Below, one piece after another: positions 1,902 to 21,456 of a stretch of 25,547 nucleotides of DNA. Within the stretch, counting starts at the first letter, position 1; every line of letters starts with the position of its first letter. This stretch comes from a virus. Its lineage: Duplodnaviria > Caudoviricetes. The stretch covers positions 1 to 25,547 of the IMG/VR virus record IMGVR_UViG_3300017913_003073; one strand, written 5' to 3'. A program made the position numbers and the translations under genes. The notes beneath the pieces are model-generated. The model saw only the letters and a program-made list of their open reading frames with translations, ran no database searches and was not told the origin of the DNA.

Positions 1902-2626
1902 GATTGTATGGCTTCCTGAAAGGCTCGATAGACACCGATGATGGCATCAGGCTTGATCACGTTGATGATCCGTAGGTCGTCGTTAGTGTTCTTGTACTCG
2001 TCCAGCCATGTTACAGGAGTCAGCTGTGCACCCGGTGCCTGTGCAGGATCGATATCTGTATACTCGAGATCGCCGTTGACATAGTGGTGCACAGAGTTCC
2101 ATTCGTCGGTTGCACCGGCAAGAGTTGCAGTATCGAATCCTGCACCGTTGTCAGAACGGATGATCTCAGAGCCCGTGAACTTGGCACTGTTAGTTCTTTT
2201 CACGATCAGCTGTCCGAAGTCCAGCCTCCTGCGGATGATTGTTCCTGTAGCACCGGATGATAGACCCTCGACAGTCTGTCCCGGCTCGAATACCTGTGAT
2301 AGCGTGTCTCTTGTCGTAAGCGTGAAGAGGTTTCGGTCAGCCTTTGCCTTCTTCTCGAGCTCTCTTTGTGAGAGTGGCCAACCCTGTTCTCGAATGTTAT
2401 CATTCATCATGAAGAACGTGAAGTAGTAGTCCGTGGTTCCATACAGCTTCTTCGATACCTGATCTGGCCTGTCACCGTCAAGGATGTTGTACTTTGTGTA
2501 GAAGGCTACGTTATCACGAACGTCATCGATTACCTGTACGTATGCTGCAAGGTTCTGTACAAAGTTTGGTGTCTTTTCAGTTCCATAGCGATAGAACGTA
2601 GACGGAAAGTTATAGAAATAAGACAT
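1898..2626 (-). CDS. gp53: Baseplate wedge subunit gp53
   Basis: MSYFYNFP start, LysM-like Y.I.DGDRPDQVSKKLYG, WPLS and HHY motifs, and a C-terminal I.VIKP; synteny agrees. Confidence 0.9.
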   Translation of the reverse strand: MSYFYNFPSTFYRYGTEKTPNFVQNLAAYVQVIDDVRDNVAFYTKYNILDGDRPDQVSKKLYGTTDYYFTFFMMNDNIREQGWPLSQRELEKKAKADRNLFTLTTRDTLSQVFEPGQTVEGLSSGATGTIIRRRLDFGQLIVKRTNSAKFTGSEIIRSDNGAGFDTATLAGATDEWNSVHHYVNGDLEYTDIDPAQAPGAQLTPVTWLDEYKNTNDDLRIINVIKPDAIIGVYRAFQEAIQS

Positions 2627-3759
2627 TAGTACCCCTGTGCAATCATCTGTTTGTCAAGTGTTCTGATCTCTGTGAAGGCCATTGAGATGTCTGTCTGTTG
2701 GAACTGGCCGTCTCTCATGAGTGTCATGCCGTTAGGATTGTATGTGGCTTGGAAGCTTGTCAGGTAACAATCCTGAATACGTGTTGCAAGGTGCTTGCTC
2801 GGATTCTTACGATCTCTAATCTTGATCTCAAAGATGTTAGGGAATCGATAGCCGATAGGTACACCGGTCTCTGCTTCCTTGATAGCTTCTGGATACATCT
2901 CATGCCTGAAGAACTTGATGATCCTGTTGATCTCGTCAGCCTCACGGTCAGATGTCGGAATCATGCTGAACGTAAAGTTGAAGGTCCTCATCTGTACACT
3001 TTTGAATAGTGCTCTTGAATTAGGATTAGTGGTTGTCTTCAAGGCTGACTTGATAGCACCACCAGCAGCATCACTCAAGCCAGACGACAATCGTACAGCG
3101 GCGAGTTGCGCAGTGGTGCTGTTCGCATTTGCGGTGAATACGTCGGTAAGAGATGAGATGCCGGCGCCTACACCTTCCATTGCTGCTTCTGTAATGGTAG
3201 ACGTGCCTGCGTTCAAGCCTTTCTCAATAGCTCCACCCATTACACCGAGATCAATGTTTTCAAAGTCAAGGCCATCAGATATGTTGAGTCCAGCTGGCAA
3301 GAACAGATCAGCTGACGTTCCGTAGTCAAATGCTTGTCTAGAAAGAGGAGCTGCCTGTGAAATAGCTGTACTTTGATTGGCTTGTGCATCTGCTGCAATT
3401 GCGCCTAGCTCTTCTGCATCTTCATCTTCAAATTCTGTTGTGGTTGACTTACCAGCATTCAGTTCTTTTTCAATCTTGGTGGCTGCGTTACGTGCTGCTC
3501 TTTCAGCCTCTTGGCTTATCTTTGCAGGCTGTTGAGCTTTGACTGTAAACCTGATGAAAGCGTCATAGTCATCTTGATTGTCAAGTGGAAACCTAAGCTT
3601 CTGCTTGTTCTGGATATATGTATCTGATGCTTGAGGCCCGAGGCCTGTACCAAGGATTCCTTCTAGATAGCCCTTAGCATCCCCTATGACATTATTGATT
3701 TCACGGGCGACACCACCTTTGAGGCGTGTTTCTAAATTTTTGAGATTGAGATCTGCCAT
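2626..3759 (-). CDS. gp48: Baseplate tail-tube cap gp48
   Basis: L.FP, LFLP, NP....LF.....R.F.F.F.MIP....EA..I..II.FF and F.E...L motifs; adjacent to gp53. Confidence 0.85.
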   Translation of the reverse strand: MADLNLKNLETRLKGGVAREINNVIGDAKGYLEGILGTGLGPQASDTYIQNKQKLRFPLDNQDDYDAFIRFTVKAQQPAKISQEAERAARNAATKIEKELNAGKSTTTEFEDEDAEELGAIAADAQANQSTAISQAAPLSRQAFDYGTSADLFLPAGLNISDGLDFENIDLGVMGGAIEKGLNAGTSTITEAAMEGVGAGISSLTDVFTANANSTTAQLAAVRLSSGLSDAAGGAIKSALKTTTNPNSRALFKSVQMRTFNFTFSMIPTSDREADEINRIIKFFRHEMYPEAIKEAETGVPIGYRFPNIFEIKIRDRKNPSKHLATRIQDCYLTSFQATYNPNGMTLMRDGQFQQTDISMAFTEIRTLDKQMIAQGY

Positions 3760-3795: not shown

Positions 3796-3803
3796 TATTT
3801 ATA
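3796..3803 (-). promoter_or_regulatory. T4-type late promoter (TATAAATA) for gp48-gp53-hub-gp5
   Basis: Exact consensus on the minus strand upstream of gp48; it faces the plus-strand late promoter. Confidence 0.75.
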
Positions 3804-4291
3804 TGGCATACTCAGGCAAATTCATCGTAGAAAACAAATCAAAATACAAAGGCGACCCTAATAAGGTGGTCTATAGGTCGTTATGGGAGAAACATACATT
3901 TTCGTGGCTTGATATTCACCCTGGTGTGCATTCGTGGAGCAGTGAAGAGGTAGTTATACCTTATTATTACGAGATTGATAAGAGATACCATCGTTACTTT
4001 GTAGATCTCAAAGTTAACTTCAAAAACGGTAAAACTATCCTGGTTGAGATCAAACCGAAGAAGCAGACCGAGCCTCCACAAGGAAAGCGTAAGACAAAAG
4101 GCTATATATCCGAAGCTATGGCCTATGTTAAGAACATGAATAAGTGGGAAGCTGCTGATACCTATGCTAAGGATCGTGGTTGGGAGTTCCAGATATGGAC
4201 CGAAGATACCTTGTATGAGATGGGTATCATGAAAAAGAGGCGCGTACAGAAGCTCGGTAAGAAGCGCATAAAGCCGCTCAAGAAGTTATAA
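3803..4291 (+). CDS. gp4: Head completion nuclease gp4 (TnsA-like fold)
   Basis: MAYSGKF...KYKGD...YRSLWE, WSSEE, HRYFVD, EIKP..QT and N..KW.AA..Y motifs. Confidence 0.93.
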   Translation: MAYSGKFIVENKSKYKGDPNKVVYRSLWEKHTFSWLDIHPGVHSWSSEEVVIPYYYEIDKRYHRYFVDLKVNFKNGKTILVEIKPKKQTEPPQGKRKTKGYISEAMAYVKNMNKWEAADTYAKDRGWEFQIWTEDTLYEMGIMKKRRVQKLGKKRIKPLKKL

Positions 4292-4299: not shown

Positions 4300-4884
4300 A
4301 TGAGTAATCTATTTCAAAAGTTAGGCTATGAGGCGTTCCGTGCTGGGGTTACTCCACGGACAAGAGAGTCTATGACATGGTTCAGGCAGAAGGCACATCG
4401 TATCAGACGTGTCAATCGCCGTGAGCTAATGAAAGAAGAGCCTATTGAACTGCGGAATACATTCCGCCCTGGCAACATGTTTATGTTCTTCTACGATCCG
4501 AAGACAAAAGATACATTGCCTTATTATGATAAGTTTCCATTGGTTGTTGTAGTAGGTAAAGCGCCAGGTGGATTCTACGGATTGAACCTGCACTACATAT
4601 CGCCATTACTTCGTGCTAAGCTTTTGGATGCTCTGTTAGACAATACTACTGATAAGAGATATGATGAGAATACTCGGTTTAAGATTAACTATGCCATGCT
4701 GAATCGTACATCCAAGTTGAGATTCTATAAGCCTTGCTTTAAGCACTATCTCCTTGACCATGTACAGTCTAGGCTGGCTCATGTACCTGCTCCTGAGTGG
4801 GAGATTGCAACATTCTTGCCTATGGCTGATTGGCGTAAGTCTCGTGCTGCAGCGGTGTATAAATTATCTAAGGATATGATCTAA
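4300..4884 (+). CDS. gp2: DNA end protector protein gp2
   Basis: G.M.MFFYDPK.K..LPYYD.FPL, GLNLHY, KPCFKHYL and EWEIA.FLP motifs. Confidence 0.93.
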   Translation: MSNLFQKLGYEAFRAGVTPRTRESMTWFRQKAHRIRRVNRRELMKEEPIELRNTFRPGNMFMFFYDPKTKDTLPYYDKFPLVVVVGKAPGGFYGLNLHYISPLLRAKLLDALLDNTTDKRYDENTRFKINYAMLNRTSKLRFYKPCFKHYLLDHVQSRLAHVPAPEWEIATFLPMADWRKSRAAAVYKLSKDMI

Positions 4885-5498
4885 TGGCACTTAGTGTAGA
4901 TACATTCAAGGCAAACCTTCGCCAGGGCATGGCGAGAACAAATCTTTATAGGGTTATACTCCCTTCGCTCCCTGGTGCGAATGCTACACAGATAAACACC
5001 TTATGTAAAGCTGTAAACATGCCTGGTCGCCAGATCTTATCATCCGAAAGAACTATGGGTATGAAGACACAGAAGGTAGCATACGGATATGCATCTGATG
5101 ATGTCAACCTTACATTCCACCTGTTACAGGACTATGGAGTAAAGACATACTTCGATACATGGCAAAAGCTGGCTATCAATCAAGAAGATCAGCGTGCCAA
5201 CTATAAAAAAGAATACGCGTATGACGTTATCATACAGCAGTTGAGAAATGATGCTATCCTTGACTTAGGTTTCAATGTTAGCATTCCTTTCTTAGGCAAC
5301 TTTGGTGCAGACATTATTACGCCTGACCAAGTGGCTTTTACATGTATCCTTGAGGATGCATTTCCTACAACCGTAAATGCGATTGAATTTAGCAATGATG
5401 CTGACCAACTCGGTGAACTGTCGGTACAGCTATCATATTCGAACTGGAGAGAAAAAGAAGGCGGTCCGCTTTCAACTCTGCTTAACTTCCTGAGGTAA
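4884..5498 (+). CDS. gp54: Baseplate tail-tube initiator gp54 (gp19 tail-tube family)
   Basis: G.AR.N.Y.V, LCK...MPG, YFD.WQ and DAFP..V...E.S motifs; lies between gp2 and gp26. Confidence 0.75.
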   Translation: MALSVDTFKANLRQGMARTNLYRVILPSLPGANATQINTLCKAVNMPGRQILSSERTMGMKTQKVAYGYASDDVNLTFHLLQDYGVKTYFDTWQKLAINQEDQRANYKKEYAYDVIIQQLRNDAILDLGFNVSIPFLGNFGADIITPDQVAFTCILEDAFPTTVNAIEFSNDADQLGELSVQLSYSNWREKEGGPLSTLLNFLR

Positions 5499-5501
5499 AT
5501 T

Positions 5502-6221
5502 ATGGCCCTTCCTAAAATTAACATGGCACCAAAATATAGCATGACTGTCCCGTCCACGGGTGATGAAGTCATGTTCCGTCCTTTCCTTGTAAAAGAGGAG
5601 AAGGTGCTAATGATGGCTATGGAGACTGGTGACAATAAGTCTTCTCTTACAGCTATCATGGACGTGATTAAATCATGTGTAGATGCAGATATTGATGAAA
5701 ATTCTGTAACTGCATTTGACGTTGAATATATGTTCCTACAGCTACGTGCCAAAAGTGTTGGTGAAACCAGCAGAATCGGTACTGTATGTGAACAATGCAA
5801 CCACGAACAGATGATTGTGGTTCCACTTAACGACATTCAAGTAAAGCAGGCAGAAGAGACATTGCCTGATGTTATTGAGCTCACCAAAGACATTTCAATT
5901 AAAATGAAATGGCCATCATACAGAAACCTGATTGATGCCGGTGTTGAGCCAGAAAAACTAAACGAGCTAGATTCAGTGTTTAAGCTTATTGCTCTTTGTA
6001 TTGACAGTGTAATGACACCAGAAGAGCAGATGAAACTATCTGATGAGTCTGAAGAAGACCAGCAGGAATTTCTCGAAAGCCTGAACTCTGAGCAGTTTAC
6101 AAAGATTAAAGAATACGTGCAAAACATTCCAACTGTTAGATATGATGTAAGTGTAGATTGTGATGGATGTGGAGCAAAGATTGAAAAACCACTAACGGGA
6201 ATAGCTAATTTTTTCTCATAG
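5502..6221 (+). CDS. gp26: Baseplate hub assembly chaperone gp26
   Basis: MALPK...P.Y, FRPFLVKEEK.L.MA.E and FD.EY.FLQLRAKSVGE motifs, two CxxC pairs, and a GIANFFS end. Confidence 0.92.
   Translation: MALPKINMAPKYSMTVPSTGDEVMFRPFLVKEEKVLMMAMETGDNKSSLTAIMDVIKSCVDADIDENSVTAFDVEYMFLQLRAKSVGETSRIGTVCEQCNHEQMIVVPLNDIQVKQAEETLPDVIELTKDISIKMKWPSYRNLIDAGVEPEKLNELDSVFKLIALCIDSVMTPEEQMKLSDESEEDQQEFLESLNSEQFTKIKEYVQNIPTVRYDVSVDCDGCGAKIEKPLTGIANFFS
6209..6215 (+). other. Candidate -1 programmed ribosomal frameshift heptamer T TTT TTC
   Basis: X XXY YYZ pattern in the gp26 reading frame, one codon before its TAG. The -1 frame is open through to 6409. Confidence 0.65.
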
Positions 6222-6250
6222 GCCTCTCCCATGATACACTAGGGAATCAT

Positions 6251-6409
6251 ATGCAGACAAACTTTCAATTGATGCAACATCATAATTATAGTTTGGCAGA
6301 TTTAGATTCGATGATACCTTGGGAACGAGAAGTATACGTACAGATGCTACTTGATTGGTTGAAGGATGAGAGGCAGAGAATAGAAGCTCAAAGCAAAGGT
6401 AGAAAGTAA
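6251..6409 (+). CDS. gp51: gp51-like C-terminal module (52 aa from ATG 6251; frame already open at 6212; missing from ORF track)
   Basis: MQTNFQLMQHHNYSLADLDSMIPWEREVYVQMLLDWLKDE matches the short gp51 family of marine T4-like phages; TAATG coupling to the next gene. Confidence 0.85.
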   Translation: MQTNFQLMQHHNYSLADLDSMIPWEREVYVQMLLDWLKDERQRIEAQSKGRK

Positions 6410-8190
6410 TGCCAAAGCCAACACCAGTGTTTCAGGACATTAAGGCTCAGCTTATTGAGGCTAATGAACAGAGAACTGTCACCAACGAACAGGTGATGGA
6501 GCTCAATCAAACGTTCAAAGATATGTATGCTATGGAGCAGCAAAGTAAGCTTGACGCATTGGAAGCTTCAAGAGAAGCAAGTAATGCTATTGGAGCTCAG
6601 AATGCTGGGCTACAGGCTGCTGCTCAGGGGATGGCTGCTGAAACTGAAAAGAAATCTGGTGGCTTCCTCTCAAAACTTCTAGGTGGCGGCATGATGGTAG
6701 CTGCGGCAGCTGGTCTTGCTGCTATTGTCGGCGGTATCCTTGCGTTTATGAAACTGGATGTCGACAAGATTATTGGTAATGTCAAGAAGCTATTTAGCAT
6801 TGGTGACATGGCTAATAGCTTAGGTGACGCTTTCGAGAAAGGTGGCAAATTCTTCCTTATAATGTCTGGTCTTGGTGCTGGTCTCGCTATCTTTGGCGTT
6901 GGATCAGCTGTAGCTGGATTGTCTGACGCTCTGCTTAATTTTACAAATCCTGACTGGGCTTCAAGTATTGTCAATAATGTAACTACCTTGCTTGAGATCA
7001 ATAACTTAGCTGGAGATAGTGTAGTGAAAACTGCAGCTACTTTCTTGGCGATTATGGGATCTCTTGGTGCAGGTCTTGCGATCTTTGGTATAGGATCAGC
7101 TGTAGCTGGATTAGCTAGCGCATTGCTTGACTTCACTACTCCAAACTGGGCTGCAACAATTAAAGATAATGCAAAGACTCTGCTTGAGATTGGTTCGCTA
7201 CCTCTTGGTGATGCGGCCGGATTCATAGCAAATATGACAGCCCTTAGCGTTGGCTTGGCTGTGTTTGGCGTAGGTGCAGCTGCCGGTGGGCTAGGTATGG
7301 CATTGGTCAACTTTACTAACCCAGAATGGGCGCAAAGTATTGTCAGCAATGTCACTACACTAATCGGAATCGCAGATATTCCTATGTCAGATACTGCAGC
7401 ATTTGTGGCTACAATGACTGGAATATCAGCTGGCCTTATAGCGTTTGCTGGCGGTTCAGCATTTGCTGCAATTGTAGATTTCTTTGTTGGTGACGATCAG
7501 GCTGACAAGATGGCCAAAAATGTAGGCACATTGATTGATATCGTCAATGATCCTAGAATGGGCGATGATCCTGTTTATAAAGCAACTCAATTCAAGTCGG
7601 CATTGACTGTAATCGGTGAGGGTCTGGCTAACTTCTCAAAGGGCTCATTCCTTGGTGCATTGGCTGGTGCCGGTGAAACTCTATTAGGCTTTTTTGGCCT
7701 CGGTAGAGAAAGTCCATTTGAAGCTATTCTTGGTGTTGCGCAAAACGCAGATGGATTGGATAAAGGCGCCGATGCTATTGAACGTCTTGGCTTCTCATTA
7801 GAAAAGATTTCTAAGCTGAAGTTTGAAGGCGGTGGCATGGGTCTTAAAGATCTGGCCGAAGATATGCTGTATGCAATACCATCAATTGAGACTGCAATCA
7901 ACGGTGGTACAGTAGGTGCAGGTATGATTTTTTCTGGTACTAAAATCAAAGGCCTTGCATCTCCTGACATCAAGTTCGATGAAGCAGTAGAAAACATTAA
8001 GAAGGTTAGAGTTATGATTGGGGCAGATTTACAAGATGCTCAGATGCAAGCTCAGGCTGCACAAGGTGCTAACGGTGGTGGCGGCACAGTTGTTAACAAC
8101 ACAACCAATAACTCAGGCGGTGGATCAATGATGATTGCACCGCAAGCTTCAGTATATCCTAACAGCAACGCAGCAGACTTCTTTAGGTAA
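6409..8190 (+). CDS. Probable tail tape-measure protein (gp29 analogue)
   Basis: 593 aa with a coiled-coil N-terminus, Ala/Gly-rich hydrophobic repeats and a C-terminal VVNNTTNN tract. It occupies the gp29 position between gp26/51 and gp32. Confidence 0.7.
   Translation: MPKPTPVFQDIKAQLIEANEQRTVTNEQVMELNQTFKDMYAMEQQSKLDALEASREASNAIGAQNAGLQAAAQGMAAETEKKSGGFLSKLLGGGMMVAAAAGLAAIVGGILAFMKLDVDKIIGNVKKLFSIGDMANSLGDAFEKGGKFFLIMSGLGAGLAIFGVGSAVAGLSDALLNFTNPDWASSIVNNVTTLLEINNLAGDSVVKTAATFLAIMGSLGAGLAIFGIGSAVAGLASALLDFTTPNWAATIKDNAKTLLEIGSLPLGDAAGFIANMTALSVGLAVFGVGAAAGGLGMALVNFTNPEWAQSIVSNVTTLIGIADIPMSDTAAFVATMTGISAGLIAFAGGSAFAAIVDFFVGDDQADKMAKNVGTLIDIVNDPRMGDDPVYKATQFKSALTVIGEGLANFSKGSFLGALAGAGETLLGFFGLGRESPFEAILGVAQNADGLDKGADAIERLGFSLEKISKLKFEGGGMGLKDLAEDMLYAIPSIETAINGGTVGAGMIFSGTKIKGLASPDIKFDEAVENIKKVRVMIGADLQDAQMQAQAAQGANGGGGTVVNNTTNNSGGGSMMIAPQASVYPNSNAADFFR
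6850..7485 (+). repeat. Three to four degenerate ~60-64 aa repeats in the tape-measure gene
   Basis: The unit M.gLgaGLAiFGvGsAvaGL..AL.nFTnP.WA.sI..N..TL..I recurs, and the DNA GGATCAGCTGTAGCTGGATT occurs twice 192 nt apart. Confidence 0.85.
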
Positions 8191-9506: not shown

Positions 9507-9702
9507 CAATCTTCTCTTCCCATAATCTGTATGGCACTCCTGAGTAGCCACTATTTTCCCAATACTCAATACGGCTTTCAGGATAGCCTTGTTCTATGAG
9601 CCATTGGCGAATATTACCAATTCCATCTGGAAACACTTTAGGAAACCCGTATCTCCATCCTTCATCTGGATCAATCATCCATCTGGTTTTTGTACGTACC
9701 AT
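9496..9702 (-). CDS. Hypothetical phage protein
   Basis: Coupled ORF with IDP.EGWRYGFPK...WL..QGYP, a pattern familiar from T4-like phages. Confidence 0.7.
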   Translation of the reverse strand: MVRTKTRWMIDPDEGWRYGFPKVFPDGIGNIRQWLIEQGYPESRIEYWENSGYSGVPYRLWEEKIDEQ

Positions 9703-10220
9703 AAATCATCCCACTTCGGTACTTTTACTTTTGGAGCTTTTGGTCCATTAGGATTTAGTTCAAACCAGTTCTCTTCAAAGTAAAGCTTTACTGCTTTGTA
9801 CACGCCTTTCTTACTGTAGTCATGACCGATAATATATCCACCCGGTCTAACTTTATTATACCACAATCTGATGTCATTGTACACCGCCCATTTACTATGA
9901 AGTGCATCAATAAATACAAAGTCTAGAGTAAAAGGACGAACCTCTCTACACGCGTTATCAGATGTCATCTTAAGAAATGTAGTCTTAGGATTATTAGGCC
10001 AGCCTCTTAGCGTGAGTTGCTTCCGCATCCCTGGCCATTGCTTCTCCATCTGATACTTGTATGGATCTACACCATACATCTTCAAATGTGGAAAGGTATC
10101 AATTAGGTGGAAATAGGTTACACCTTCATGTACTCCTATCTCTGCACCGACAGTAAAGTTATTGTCTCTGACTAGGTTTTCTAGCCAGAGTTTTCTATGT
10201 TGTTCTGGATGTTCCGTCAC
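9675..10220 (-). CDS. Class I SAM-dependent methyltransferase (Methyltransf_24-like)
   Basis: GAEIGV..G, YGVDP, LDFVFIDA.H and VRPGGYIIGHDY motifs. Confidence 0.88.
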   Translation of the reverse strand: MTEHPEQHRKLWLENLVRDNNFTVGAEIGVHEGVTYFHLIDTFPHLKMYGVDPYKYQMEKQWPGMRKQLTLRGWPNNPKTTFLKMTSDNACREVRPFTLDFVFIDALHSKWAVYNDIRLWYNKVRPGGYIIGHDYSKKGVYKAVKLYFEENWFELNPNGPKAPKVKVPKWDDLWYVQKPDG

Positions 10221-16399: not shown

Positions 16400-16993
16400 C
16401 TATTTAGGGGTAATGACTTCCACGTTGTCTGGAAGTTGAATCTTTGCTTCTTTATGCTTATGATATACGAAGAATTGAGTCTTCTTAAATTCATTGAAGA
16501 TGCCCTCCGTAATAGGACGCCAGTTGTTGGCAAGGCGGAATGTGTTTTCCGCGTTTCTATTCGAAGACAGTACAAAATCTGTTGTGCTGATCAAGTTAAA
16601 GTCAAAGATAGAGTCAAATCCATAGAGGTGGATTTCCTCAGCATTTAGCCTGTTACAGGCATAGTGTGTAGCCATGTGACCACAATTAAAGTCAGTATAG
16701 TTCTTTGCATATTTAGGTAAATCGAGGTAAAACTCTTTCACTCTTGGTGCGTATTTCATATAAAAGCTTGGATTGCCTTCCATATATTTCTTAGGCCTTG
16801 CGCCCATAACCCAGTCGAGCATGTTTAGGTTTACACTACCTTCATGAATAGCTCTACACATCTTAAAGTCAACAATACATGTAGCATATACGTTTTGAAT
16901 CTCACGTGGTGGTAGATTACACGTCAGCTTAAGTCCCTTTGCCGGCTGATAAAAGTTATGTGAATCACCATTTCCAATAATATGTACCTTCAT
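16400..16993 (-). CDS. Sialyltransferase/MAF(DUF115)-like glycosyltransferase-fold protein
   Basis: HIIGNGDS...CN...NCGHMA..YA....AEEIHLYGFD pattern. Confidence 0.6.
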   Translation of the reverse strand: MKVHIIGNGDSHNFYQPAKGLKLTCNLPPREIQNVYATCIVDFKMCRAIHEGSVNLNMLDWVMGARPKKYMEGNPSFYMKYAPRVKEFYLDLPKYAKNYTDFNCGHMATHYACNRLNAEEIHLYGFDSIFDFNLISTTDFVLSSNRNAENTFRLANNWRPITEGIFNEFKKTQFFVYHKHKEAKIQLPDNVEVITPK

Positions 16994-17661
16994 TGTGCCA
17001 TCAATTCCCTGATCTTATCCTTGCCTTTACGACCTGTCCAATGGATGCCTCTCACATCCTTATCTAGTTTAGCACCATCTACGAAAAGCAACCGCATCCA
17101 GTTGAACTTTTGTGGTGCATCTGTAATATATATCGCCTTCCTTAGCGGATCCATATGTGCATGCAATGTTTCTTGATCTCCTCGGACAGGCTTTTCATGA
17201 CACAGTTGAGCCCATTCACGTAAGATTGGAGGCTTGTCTCTAAATGCTACAATTCCAGAATTATGCCATTGCTGGCCACTGCGCTTTGACCAAGGTTTAT
17301 CCTCTACCATACACAGCTTCTGGTCTTCTACATAATTAAAAATTTCTTCCATGTCGCCTCGGATCTCAAAGTCAGTGTCAATCCAGCATACTTCTTTGTA
17401 TGGCGTACCAAGCATCGCGCTCGGCTTGAGAAACCACCCTTGGCCCATTTCTCTGTCCATTTGACCAATGGAATGAAACTCTTTCGAAGCTACTGCCCAT
17501 TCCATCATCTTGTCAGACATGCCAAAATCTGCTAGCGACATCTTAACTGTAGGGTTATGCTTACGAAAACCCTCTACAAACCAAGGCAACATCCATTCTG
17601 TTTTTTCATCACAACCTGTAAGAAAGGCTCTATCAAACTGGCTCAATTTTATATCCCTCAT
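16990..17661 (-). CDS. GT-A fold glycosyltransferase (GT8/GT77-like); start 17661 or TTG 17646
   Basis: WFLKP, WIDTD (DxD), NSGIVAF, GDQE.L and HWTG..GK motifs. Confidence 0.8.
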   Translation of the reverse strand: MRDIKLSQFDRAFLTGCDEKTEWMLPWFVEGFRKHNPTVKMSLADFGMSDKMMEWAVASKEFHSIGQMDREMGQGWFLKPSAMLGTPYKEVCWIDTDFEIRGDMEEIFNYVEDQKLCMVEDKPWSKRSGQQWHNSGIVAFRDKPPILREWAQLCHEKPVRGDQETLHAHMDPLRKAIYITDAPQKFNWMRLLFVDGAKLDKDVRGIHWTGRKGKDKIRELMAQ

Positions 17662-18298
17662 TATAATTGTGTTTTGCCTGGCATCCCAATTCGTTTTGAA
17701 TAGTAGTAAAGTAATCCCTAGCTTCATGTGTCCAAGGATACAGCTCTTCAAGGAAAGGGAACCTGTCAAGGTTCAAGAAAACGTCGGTAGGAGCAGCACC
17801 GTGTACCTGAGCATGATTGACCACTGTTCTAGCTCCGGCCGGCTTTACTGCATAGGCATGAGCACCAGGGAAATATCTCTTTGAATGTAGTGGACCTGAC
17901 CCCATCACCATTGGTGTTCTGAAACGTCCATAGCTAGGTTTACCCATAGACATGAACTGTTTGAATCCCCACCCAGCTCTAATCGATTCTGGCAGTGGCA
18001 TAACCTGTACAGCATCATGTTCAAATATCATCATAGGCTCATTTATTTCAAGGCACTTTTGCCATAGAGAAAAATGAGAAAGAAATGCTGCGGCACAGTT
18101 TTCATTACGAGAATACTTTTCAATGAGAGCTTCTGTCGGAACCTTACGTTCTTTCAGTATCTCAAATGGATTGTCTTTTGGCGTATATGCCTCAAACTTC
18201 TCTACAATCTCACCAAACTTTTCTGCCTCGCGAATGCAACGGTCTGCTGCTTCAACAGATTTAGCATTATCCATTATTGTAATTACGAATGATCTCAT
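17633..18298 (-). CDS. Glycosyltransferase family 25
   Basis: AAFLSHFSLW, MIFEHDA, GAHAYAV.P.GA and P.D.FL motifs. Confidence 0.88.
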   Translation of the reverse strand: MRSFVITIMDNAKSVEAADRCIREAEKFGEIVEKFEAYTPKDNPFEILKERKVPTEALIEKYSRNENCAAAFLSHFSLWQKCLEINEPMMIFEHDAVQVMPLPESIRAGWGFKQFMSMGKPSYGRFRTPMVMGSGPLHSKRYFPGAHAYAVKPAGARTVVNHAQVHGAAPTDVFLNLDRFPFLEELYPWTHEARDYFTTIQNELGCQAKHNYNEGYKIEPV

Positions 18299-18990
18299 AG
18301 CGTTGTAGTAGAAGGTGTCCTTTGCACCACGGTGTAGTATTCTCTAGTCTGCCCAATACCCTTAAAGTTCTGATAACACAGAAGAGCATCATTTGGCCAG
18401 ATTCCGATGTTCTTAATCAACTCACATGCTTCTGCGGCCAGATCAGGTTTAATTATGTATGCACTATTTCCAGCCAACCCTTGAGGAATATCATATTCAT
18501 CAACCTTTGGCACAGGTCCAATAGTATTCTTAAATCCTTGAACAGTGTCGTGATAGACTTGAGATCTACGAGTTGCACCTCTTGGATCGTTAATTCCAAC
18601 CAAGTTATAGTTGGAGCTTATAATCACATCAGGATCTAGTCTTTGCACAAACACTGCATCATGTTCAAGGATAAGCATTGGTTCTTTGGTTTGAGCAACC
18701 TCTTTCCAAAGCGTCCAATGAGAAAGGAAGCATGCAATTCTCTTGTTAGGATCAACCGTTGGATATGCAGTCAGCTTTAGGCCTGTTGCAAAATCAACTC
18801 TACCACCTTCCAATGGATATGTCCATTGTAGCATATTGCTATTCATAAGATGAGGAACTTGATCTGGAGTTATAGCGTCAAACACTTCAAGATCGAACTC
18901 ATTGCCGACTCTCTTATGTGACTCAATACACTTCTTCGAAGCATTCTCTGATACGCTGTTTCCAGCGATTGTAATTATTTTTGCTTTCAT
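18295..18990 (-). CDS. Glycosyltransferase family 25
   Basis: FDAI, ACFLSHWTLW, LILEHDA, GNSAYIIKP and WPNDA motifs. Confidence 0.88.
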   Translation of the reverse strand: MKAKIITIAGNSVSENASKKCIESHKRVGNEFDLEVFDAITPDQVPHLMNSNMLQWTYPLEGGRVDFATGLKLTAYPTVDPNKRIACFLSHWTLWKEVAQTKEPMLILEHDAVFVQRLDPDVIISSNYNLVGINDPRGATRRSQVYHDTVQGFKNTIGPVPKVDEYDIPQGLAGNSAYIIKPDLAAEACELIKNIGIWPNDALLCYQNFKGIGQTREYYTVVQRTPSTTTL

Positions 18991-19604
18991 GTCAACCTAA
19001 TAATGTAGCTATCTGGTTCGCCTGTTACAGAACGCAGGTCGAATCTTTCAATTTTCATTTTTGACCGGTCCAAAGCTTGTAGGAACTGCTCATTCTTAAA
19101 TGCATTGTAGTCTTTTAGATTACGCTGCACCCAAGGATGTCCTAGCTCTTCGAGAGTCATCTTTTCTAATGGCCATACGTCTTCAATAAAGTACTGGCCA
19201 CCTTCTGCAAGGAAAGGCTTGAGGTGATTGAACGTAAGCATGTTTGCTTCCGGTGTATGCTTACCATCATCAATAATAATGTCAAACTTGATCTGACCAA
19301 ACTCGCCATGAACCTGTGGTCCAACGGCAGCATTGGTTGAGTCTGCTTTCATAAGATGAGATCTTTCTAGTCCATAAGGTTCAATCTCATTCTTACGTGT
19401 ACGAGTAAAGATGTCTAATCCATAGATGTCTGCATTCGGAAAGTAATCCAAATGAGCCAGCATGCTGTGGCCTTTCCAAACACCAACTTCAAGAATCTTC
19501 AGGGCGTCTTCACGAATAGGTTCAAAGAACTTTTCATAGACTGTATCGTATCGATGCTTTTTAGACTTGTCGCATCCATACTTATCAAATAAGCTTCCCA
19601 GCAT
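18987..19604 (-). CDS. Class I SAM-dependent (sugar O-)methyltransferase-like protein
   Basis: DK...H.Y...YE, ILEVGV..G.S, YFPNA.IYGLDI, FDIIIDDG.H and GG.Y.IED motifs. Confidence 0.85.
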   Translation of the reverse strand: MLGSLFDKYGCDKSKKHRYDTVYEKFFEPIREDALKILEVGVWKGHSMLAHLDYFPNADIYGLDIFTRTRKNEIEPYGLERSHLMKADSTNAAVGPQVHGEFGQIKFDIIIDDGKHTPEANMLTFNHLKPFLAEGGQYFIEDVWPLEKMTLEELGHPWVQRNLKDYNAFKNEQFLQALDRSKMKIERFDLRSVTGEPDSYIIRLT

Positions 19605-19613
19605 TATGTACTC

Positions 19614-20009
19614 CTATTTCTTGAAGCTTAGCGATTGCTGCTTACCTTCATACGTAAATGTAATGGTGCTATGAGAGTAAATGGTTTGTTGCTCTTCTTC
19701 ATAGCGTGTTTCAGTTCGACACTGTGGTCCTTTATCTTTATTTCTTTCTGTATTTAGCACACCACCAAGAAAGGCTCCAAGAGCTCCGCCGTTCTCTTCA
19801 CCTGGGATGTTATTACCAATAGCACCACCTACAATGGCGCCTTCAAGAAAGTTGGTGATATCTGACTTGTTGTTACCGTTACCTTGAGTACACACCTCAA
19901 CGGTGTATGGCTTTTGCACAATTACAGTCTTGTAGTGATCTGTAATGTTTTGTGCATACGCTGTGGTCGACAGCAAAATAAGACCAGTTGCAATGATCAA
20001 AGTTTTCAT
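19614..20009 (-). CDS. Glycine-zipper 2TM domain exported protein
   Basis: Signal peptide (AYA) and GAIVGGAIG...GGALGAFLGG flanked by Cys. Confidence 0.8.
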   Translation of the reverse strand: MKTLIIATGLILLSTTAYAQNITDHYKTVIVQKPYTVEVCTQGNGNNKSDITNFLEGAIVGGAIGNNIPGEENGGALGAFLGGVLNTERNKDKGPQCRTETRYEEEQQTIYSHSTITFTYEGKQQSLSFKK

Positions 20010-20012
20010 AAT

Positions 20013-20714
20013 TTATTTCCTCCAATAATTTTTTTGTGCTGCGGTGTCGAAGTCAAATCCCCAATAATCAATATCTGCCTTATACCAGTCAGCAATGATT
20101 TGAATTGTCTTATCGTTATATAGGTCCCGATAAGTACCTTTGTTTAGAGCTGTGACATTGCGAGCTCTAGTCATTTTAGGGATTCCAAAGTAAGCTTCAA
20201 GATCTGAGTTTAGATGTTCAAATCTAAGAATGTCGCACTTAACAGTACCAGCGTCATCAACGACATGATCAAGTGCCGGGTACCAGCCTCTAACTGCGCG
20301 ATGCCACATGTAAGGTTCACCACCCCACTTATGACGCTCTTCAAGAAATGCTTCAAATGAGCTAACATCTGCATAAGAAGGATCAACCTTTTGTTCGACT
20401 TCAATTACTTTCTTCGCAAAAAAATACCTGCTAACAACGCGATCCCAGGGATTCCTAGCCACAGCAAAAGCGTCAAAGGAGTTTCTGTAATCTTTACGAA
20501 GATCTCGCCATCGAGCATGCTCAGCCCCGTGATGGTCATTTGTTTTCCTCATTTGTTCCATTAGTCCGCTTGTGTACGATGGACTGATATGTTTACTAGA
20601 ATCGTTTACCCAAATCTTTTGACCAAGCCCATGACGAATTGTCATGCCTGCATTCTTAGGAATGTGAACAAAGATTTTACGTGACAAGGTGGACAAGCTC
20701 ATCGAAATTTTCAC
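20013..20714 (-). CDS. Sulfotransferase family 2 (true start likely a few codons downstream)
   Basis: 5'-PSB motif FVHIPKNAG.TI, 3'-PB motif RNPWDRVVSRY, ILRFE.L..D and Y..D...WGF.F. Confidence 0.88.
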   Translation of the reverse strand: MKISMSLSTLSRKIFVHIPKNAGMTIRHGLGQKIWVNDSSKHISPSYTSGLMEQMRKTNDHHGAEHARWRDLRKDYRNSFDAFAVARNPWDRVVSRYFFAKKVIEVEQKVDPSYADVSSFEAFLEERHKWGGEPYMWHRAVRGWYPALDHVVDDAGTVKCDILRFEHLNSDLEAYFGIPKMTRARNVTALNKGTYRDLYNDKTIQIIADWYKADIDYWGFDFDTAAQKNYWRK

Positions 20715-21456
20715 CCTTCATTGGTAGTTTATCTTTCAAAAAGAAATGCACGAAATGGCAATCTTTAATCTTGGTATTGGCTGTATATAGGCCATTCCAT
20801 TTCCAGTCCATGTGCTGAACTTTCATGTTCTGCTCTTTCACCCAGAAGTTCAGAAGTGTCTGGTCTGTTGACCACTTCCACGCTCCCTTTCCATCAACAA
20901 AGTCTTTGAACTTGGACTGCTCAATAAACTCTTTTGGTGACTTGCCTTTCAGGTAATCTTTAATGCTACTATTGAGAAGCATAAGACCCATGTTGAAAAA
21001 CTCGAAACCAAGATTATTAGGTTTGAAATCGATGAACTGCGCAAGATCGCGATACTGCATAGCAGAATAGTTGCGAATCTTTTGCTGATATTTTTCGGTG
21101 ATTGGCATTTCTCTTTCTACCACCCCACCGAAGTCGACATCATCGTTGAATGCTTCAAAGATATTCGGAGCATTGGGTCGAATCCAGATGTCTGAGTCTA
21201 CAATAGCTATCTTGTCATATTTGTCAAGATAGTCAAATGCGTTTTCTTTTTCGTAAATAGGAAGATAGCCTAACCTCTCCACAGCCTCTCTTGAGCGATT
21301 GGTTGAGAAGGGGTCAGGCCTTATCATAAGTTTTGGTACTGTTTGAATTATGTGGTCTATATCATACTTTTTACAGTAGCTTTTTACAGAATTGATACAA
21401 CCATCATATAGTCGTGAACCTTTTCCAACGTTCACTTGATAAATCATAGTTTTCAT
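20677..21456 (-). CDS. GT-A fold glycosyltransferase (GT8-like)
   Basis: IAIVDSDIWI...APNIF, FFNMG.ML, DQTLLN, WNGL and FVHFF motifs. Confidence 0.85.
   Translation of the reverse strand: MKTMIYQVNVGKGSRLYDGCINSVKSYCKKYDIDHIIQTVPKLMIRPDPFSTNRSREAVERLGYLPIYEKENAFDYLDKYDKIAIVDSDIWIRPNAPNIFEAFNDDVDFGGVVEREMPITEKYQQKIRNYSAMQYRDLAQFIDFKPNNLGFEFFNMGLMLLNSSIKDYLKGKSPKEFIEQSKFKDFVDGKGAWKWSTDQTLLNFWVKEQNMKVQHMDWKWNGLYTANTKIKDCHFVHFFLKDKLPMKGENFDELVHLVT

Follow-up and report, generated by a model that had tools for sequence, protein, structure and literature searches.

The chaperone locus and its neighborhood

The window analyzed here is a 25.5-kb fragment (25,547 nt, about 12% of the genome) of an uncultured T4-like marine phage taken from IMG/VR, and within it gp26 is surrounded by a block of T4-type baseplate and tail genes (Table 1). 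The gp26 product gives the only match to PF12322 in the record, scoring 200.3 bits against a cut-off of 24.5 over residues 10-238, and the same locus encodes a gp51-type module in its -1 frame. A full-length gp51 gene of its own may lie in the part of the genome outside this fragment. The gene immediately 5' of the chaperone gene, which is of the tail tube type in the window, is annotated as tail tube or tube initiator in phage C48C1, Rhizobium phage N34, Aeromonas phage CC2, and Vibrio phage PC-Liy1.

Table 1. Genes and sequence features at and around the gp26 junction (window coordinates)
Feature	Position	Strand	Evidence or remark
gp5-like	1-546	minus	
Tail protein	543-1901	minus	
Wedge subunit	1898-2626	minus	
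gp48	2626-3759	minus	
gp4	3803-4291	plus	
gp2	4300-4884	plus	
Tail-tube-type gene (gp54/gp19-like, 204 aa)	4884-5498	plus	phrog_45 'tail tube' 6.2e-31; directly 5' of gp26
gp26 ORF, short chaperone form (TAC-N, 239 aa)	5502-6221	plus	PF12322 T4_baseplate 4.2e-59; phrog_150 5e-63
GGGA, Shine-Dalgarno (SD)-like, over the invariant Gly233 codon	6197-6200	plus	8 nt 5' of the heptamer; possible stimulator
TAA closing the -1 frame, immediately before the heptamer	6206-6208	plus	Translation
Slippery heptamer T_TTT_TTC, in X_XXY_YYZ phase in the gp26 frame	6209-6215	plus	
TAG stop of gp26, one codon past the heptamer	6219-6221	plus	
-1 frame ORF, 66 codons plus TAA, gp51-type C-terminal module	6209-6409	plus	phrog_634, phrog_150, BLASTP to T4 gp51
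In-frame ATG, possible independent start of a 52-aa product	6251-6253	plus	AGGGA at 6241-6245, 5 nt 5' of the ATG
Small gp51-like ORF from ATG	6251-6409	plus	
Putative tape measure gene (593 aa)	6409-8190	plus	Length, position, repeated Gly/Ala-rich hydrophobic segments
gp32	3' of the 593-aa gene	minus	

An earlier sequence-only reading of this DNA had placed a tape-measure-like gene at 6409. The start position stands, and the protein is similar in length to T4 gp29 (590 aa). A protein atlas returned PF25671 T4_Tape_measure as its rank-9 cluster (score 0.92), which we treat as a lead only. The protein has no Pfam or PHROG match at E <= 0.01, and a BLASTP comparison with T4 gp29 detected no similarity (best E 1.3). 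Its identity as the tape measure gene, the other part of that earlier claim, is therefore no more than weakly indicated.

Elsewhere in the window, a run of ORFs at 16400-21456 on the minus strand sits among the phage genes and is mostly devoid of PHROG matches. Methyltransferase-like genes occur at 9675-10220 and 18987-19604 and a sulfotransferase-like gene at 20013-20714; together with the ORF run, they possibly represent a host-surface or DNA-modification cassette.

The 3' end of gp26 carries a conserved slippery heptamer

gp26 ends AAT TTT TTC TCA TAG, and the in-frame heptamer that the sequence-only reading had pointed out is present at the expected phase. The same reading had predicted a stop-free -1 frame leading to a 302-residue fusion and to the start of the next gene, and translation agrees with it on all three points. 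From the heptamer onward the -1 frame reads FFLIGLSHDTLGNHMQTNF...PWERE... and is open up to the TAA at 6407-6409, which is overlapped by the ATG of the next ORF at 6409-6411 (TAATG). The gp26 frame and the -1 frame overlap at 6209-6221 only, and the predicted fusion comprises 236 + 66 = 302 aa.

For comparison, gp26 relatives were collected from IMG/VR (the best 80 of 204, 40-51% identical), a selection that oversamples the window's own clade because only the best matches were taken, and from 15 named phages picked across 1005 tblastn hits, to which T4 was added. The 80 IMG/VR relatives, less three that run off the contig before the gp26 stop, together with the window and 10 named phages make up 88 loci, among which there are 63 distinct junctions. 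A T_TTT_TTN heptamer in the phase of gp26 was found in all 81 sequences of the first pass and, after seven further named phages had been included, in 88 of 88 loci, so that the conserved heptamer and constant -1 relation sought among homologues are both there. The span between the heptamer and the gp51-type module, which would be interrupted by stops if the two were unconnected according to the earlier reading, is likewise open; at loci with enough sequence, the -1 ORFs measure 58-71 codons.

The pattern of variation within the heptamer is highly constrained. Across the 63 distinct junctions the seventh base varies (T in 32, C in 17, G in 10, and A in 4), and the T run is six long in 31, seven in 1, and eight in 31. 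The run always starts at codon position 3 and is never longer on its upstream side, and every junction has the gp26 stop either directly after the heptamer (45 junctions) or one codon further on (18 junctions). In an alignment of 58 junctions, all six T positions (0-5), among them the last base of the codon before, reach 2.0 bits, and third-position variability passes from frame 0 to frame -1 precisely at the heptamer. The codon before the heptamer's Phe codons is GAT, AAT, AGT, TCT, or GCT, with T as its last base throughout, and TTT is used without exception for the first Phe. For these two frozen synonymous sites the background in the same genes is 0.763 and 0.743, and the joint chance is roughly 2e-8 to 1.5e-12 for 31-48 sequence clusters, a figure that derives from a cluster count and not from a tree. 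Chance occurrence of the heptamer is ruled out by the in-phase TTTTTTN at all 88 loci together with the invariant synonymous sites. The free seventh base, the six fixed bases, and the strict phase fit a tandem -1 slippage of two tRNAs. A DNA search placed the highest conservation between this phage and cyanophages at the junction (about 6198-6348 of the window, 68-74% identity).

The layout in which a single locus carries both frames and T_TTT_TTN is found in the Kyanoviridae (P-HM1, S-T4, ACG-2014i, P-SSM2, C48C1, and Ochrobactrum phage OC) and also in the Pootjesviridae (Rhizobium phage N34), in Aeromonas phage CC2, and in a KVP40-like Vibrio phage. Stenotrophomonas phage YB07 shows the layout by frame only, its -1 ORF having no PHROG match.

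T4 gp51 is colinear with the predicted fusion

The -1 ORF of the window matches phrog_634 ('baseplate hub assembly catalyst') at 2e-25 and positions 231-276 of the 282 positions of phrog_150 at 2.1e-5. T4 has two PF12322 proteins. T4 gp26 (208 aa) matches PF12322 only (8.8e-64), and T4 gp51 (249 aa) matches PF12322 over residues 1-201 (3.9e-52), phrog_634 over residues 147-246 (1.2e-23), and phrog_150 along its whole length. In BLASTP comparisons, the N-terminal part of T4 gp51 aligned with the window gp26 (E 6e-7) and its residues 200-244 aligned with the window -1 ORF (E 1e-4), making gp51 colinear with the predicted fusion. The description of T4 gp51 in the sequence-only reading, as a gp26-type domain followed by this C-terminal module, was thus accurate. 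These comparisons support a correspondence, drawn from sequence similarity, of T4 gp26 to the short form and of T4 gp51 to the predicted long form.

Genes 26 and 51 stand apart and are divergently transcribed in T4, Erwinia phage Cronus, and Serratia phage Muldoon, whereas the window has one locus that would give both forms, and the gp26 of these three phages lacks the slip site, ending ...EFFELL or similar. The separate genes 26 and 51 of T4 would then be the derived state in a group that otherwise keeps to the frameshift near-universal among tail chaperone genes.

The N-terminal domain of gp26 resembles a tail assembly chaperone

An AlphaFold2 model of gp26 built from a 33-sequence alignment had a mean pLDDT of 89.1 and a pTM of 0.83. 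Foldseek found nothing in the PDB for this model at E <= 0.001. An exhaustive VIA-align search of 48,161 chains gave as its top three matches 3fgx_B (Z 7.8), 3klu_A (Z 7.2), and 2ob9_B (Z 7.2), all aligned with model residues 1-88 to 1-95; below them, the first unrelated match has Z 4.6. 2ob9_B is described as 'bacteriophage HK97 tail assembly chaperone', and 82 of its 104 residues were aligned at an rmsd of 3.2 A. The tool itself rates Z values under 8 as middling; we nevertheless give weight to the HK97 match because it is well separated from the entries that follow and spans most of the domain. For gp26 residues 1-88, the model supports a chaperone-like fold of the kind seen in solved tail assembly chaperones such as HK97 2ob9.

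The remainder of gp26 includes four invariant cysteines, C96, C99, C220, and C223 (window 5787-5798 and 6159-6170), arranged as two CxxC pairs. The pairs adjoin each other in the model, and there are weak matches to zinc-ribbon-type folds (Z about 3). Lambda-type chaperones are not known to have such a cysteine-bearing part. A complex prediction pairing the -1 module with the gp54-like tube protein scored 0.00, which is uninformative either way.

Sequence elements flanking the heptamer

The sequence-only reading had seen only weak stimulators at the junction, namely, GGGA at 6197-6200 and short stems downstream. The upstream element holds up as a weak SD-like signal; the downstream one does not, there being no conserved RNA structure in the 60 nt past the heptamer (mean z -0.42, with 6 of 59 junctions below -2, relative to mononucleotide shuffles). 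In the window itself these 60 nt fold at -5.8 kcal/mol (z +0.47). A downstream hairpin or pseudoknot as a conserved stimulator is ruled out by these z-scores. Strong local hairpins do occur in P-SSM2 and in a few further relatives; that of P-SSM2 (positions 2211-2260 of our locus L096) has a folding energy of about -16 kcal/mol (z -3.1) and starts about 5 nt past the heptamer, which implies that some lineages may have gained a downstream stimulator.

Upstream, the window GGGA forms an anti-SD duplex of -4.3 kcal/mol, placing it in the strongest 9% of positions in its own gene. Across the 63 junctions, an SD-like element 8-12 nt 5' of the heptamer has a median anti-SD energy of -5.1 kcal/mol, versus a background of -0.9 kcal/mol, and in 46 of them it ranks in the strongest 10% of its own gene. 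The signal exceeds that of other Gly codons only modestly (-5.1 versus -3.95, p 2e-5), a comparison that ignores kinship and is confounded by the invariant Gly codon.

RNA data were available as Logan contigs, which are blind to a minority of transcripts with one extra U, to transcript ends, and to strand. The shares for three RNA-library runs were small, at 0.14, 0.07, and 0.05. One RNA-library contig (X1, 351 nt) spans 5973-6323 gap-free with the genomic T6 and so has the junction in one piece; we regard it as weak evidence because such libraries can contain DNA.

How the -1 module is translated

The gp51-type module might be made without any recoding, solely as a separate 52-aa protein initiated at ATG 6251. 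The AGGGA that precedes this codon by 5 nt, to which the sequence-only reading had drawn attention, is indeed present, and small gp51 genes are annotated in P-HM1, P-SSM2, C48C1, and others. The ATG, which is codon 14 of the -1 frame, is nevertheless specific to this phage, occurring in 1 of 58 junctions; the sole conserved in-frame ATG is codon 21, present in 44 of the 58. More telling is what lies upstream of these codons. The residues just past the two Phe residues of the -1 frame are conserved and free of indels, none of the 33 aligned sequences departs from L6, S7, and H8 of the -1 product, and -1 codon periodicity begins at the heptamer. Of the LSHD whose conservation the earlier reading had made a test, L-S-H is thus invariant and lies upstream of every conserved start codon, and most relatives have no ATG before the Met at codon 21. 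In ACG-2014i (locus L001, 1511-1700) and Aeromonas phage CC2 (locus L090, 2181-2366; phrog_634 match at 2.2e-12), the module is present in the -1 frame with no usable annotated start, being unannotated in the public records, and the S-T4 annotation begins it at an internal TTG. Separate synthesis alone also leaves the frozen synonymous sites of the heptamer unaccounted for and sits poorly with T4 gp51, in which the module is fused to a gp26-type domain. We consider it quite improbable that the module is made in this way only, but in this particular phage ATG 6251, with its plausible SD, could make the 52-aa module on its own as well. An even slimmer prospect, to which we give hardly any credence, is that ribosomes terminating at TAG 6219 reinitiate nearby in the -1 frame with no slip. 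The gp26 stop does adjoin the -1 ORF in all loci, but the interval from the heptamer to L-S-H lacks any conserved start-like codon (GTG at codon 3 in 12 of 58 junctions, ATG at codons 4-5 in 4 of 58), and reinitiation would explain neither the frozen T at position 0 nor the preference for TTT over TTC.

Some recoding event at the T run that yields short and long chaperone forms is, in our judgment, very likely. One such event would be transcriptional: if RNA polymerase inserted one extra U at the T run in a minor fraction of transcripts, the outcome would be an identical 302-aa protein, and both the nature of the conserved element, a homopolymer of 6-8 T, and the lack of a conserved downstream RNA structure would suit it. 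Half of the junctions, though, have six T only, a run on the short side for bacterial RNA polymerase to slip on efficiently, and the fixed start at codon position 3 and the free seventh base reflect what tRNAs need rather than what a polymerase needs. Contig X1, of genomic length across the site, is uninformative about minor species. The phage Adele paper calls the poly-T of the TAC-N genes of T4-like phages a -1 frameshift slippery sequence (PMC12846349). Polymerase slippage therefore seems unlikely to us, and a ribosomal -1 frameshift at the gp26 T run is, from the sequence evidence, the probable route to the long form.

A proposed model for the two chaperone forms

According to the ribosomal frameshift reading, most ribosomes would terminate at TAG 6219-6221, giving the short form of 239 aa. 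The smaller share would slip back one base on T_TTT_TTC and read the -1 frame to TAA 6407-6409, yielding the 302-aa long form with its gp51-type C-terminal module. The slip would consist of a tandem re-pairing of two Phe tRNAs, from UUU-UUC to UUU-UUU, and might be aided by the adjacent stop codon and the upstream SD-like GGGA and not by downstream structure. The two products may have the roles of lambda G and GT. Chaperone pairs of the lambda G/GT type are produced in a fixed ratio and are both needed to assemble the tail, their N part binding the tape measure and their C part the tube protein. If the analogy with lambda holds, the N-terminal part common to both forms would coat the presumed tape measure protein from the next gene, and the C-terminal module, present only in the rare long form, would bring in tube-type proteins and so start the tail tube on the hub.

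A more specific version of this mechanism, a stop-adjacent, SD-assisted -1 frameshift that needs no downstream RNA structure, is a tentative suggestion that we think may well prove wrong. In such a mechanism, the pause allowing the Phe tRNAs to slip would come from the stop 0-1 codons past the heptamer together with the upstream rRNA-binding GG element. If it is true, the ratio of short to long form would be tuned by host termination efficiency and not by mRNA folding.

Comparison with known systems

The window shares several features with lambda gpG/gpGT: two overlapping frames that follow a tube-type gene and precede what may be the tape measure gene, a heptamer of the X_XXY_YYZ type right where the first frame ends, and a second frame that has no start of its own (in the window family, no conserved start). 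The differences are also clear. No sequence similarity to lambda G can be detected in gp26, which is roughly double its length and has the additional four-cysteine part, and the heptamer of the window family is U_UUU_UUN whereas that of lambda is G_GGA_AAG. With E. coli dnaX the window has in common a heptamer and an upstream SD-like element. In dnaX the SD-like stimulator lies about 10 nt upstream and is combined with a strong downstream stem-loop; the stem-loop has no conserved counterpart in the window family, in which the SD-like signal is weak and confounded by the Gly codon. Conservation of the -1 frameshift of tail assembly chaperone genes was reportedly described by Xu, Hendrix and Duda in 2004, a study cited in PMC12859696.

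Vladimirov, Gautam and Davidson (Virology 2022; 566:9-15) are credited, in two later papers (PMC10885494 and PMC12846349), with identifying the T4-like phages' chaperone genes and their poly-T slip signals. As summarized in the PRFect paper (PMC10885494), some T4-like phages have a short gene and a longer fusion gene and no frameshifting, and as summarized in the phage Adele paper (PMC12846349), poly-T stretches in T4-like TAC-N genes are known -1 slip signals. Judging by these citing papers, a connection of gp26/gp51 with G/GT-type chaperones thus appears to have been published already. Literature searches on gp26, gp51, frameshift, or tail assembly chaperone found no experimental demonstration and no other relevant paper. 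The proposal in the sequence-only reading that the short gp51 of marine phages is really the T part of a G/GT-type frameshift is therefore well supported in substance, by the heptamer at all 88 loci, the invariant L-S-H, and the composition of T4 gp51, but it is not new.

Because a two-frame chaperone gene has already been published for the family, the value of the present locus lies in confirmation in a new uncultured lineage. The details added here, namely, the frozen synonymous sites, the always-adjacent stop, the lack of a conserved downstream structure, and the weak upstream SD-like element, could guide a first experimental test of the junction. The small 'gp51' genes annotated in marine and other T4-like phages are most plausibly the latter half of a chaperone gene that spans two frames.

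Relatives with a different gp26 terminus

In the Ackermannviridae (Salmonella phage SilasIsHot and Klebsiella phage Menlow) and in Vibrio phage K445, gp26 ends ...NTT TTC ANN TAA, with no run of six T. A small ORF is nevertheless kept in the -1 frame in all three (locus L092, 2229-2399; locus L094, 2310-2483; and locus L093, 2049-2252). These ORFs match phrog_9633 at 2.4e-36, 9.5e-31, and 1.3e-5, and the first two also match phrog_634 weakly (0.0026 and 0.00026). The arrangement of frames suggests that the gp26 genes of these phages may have the same two-form layout with another slip site, which presumably resembles that of T7 gene 10.
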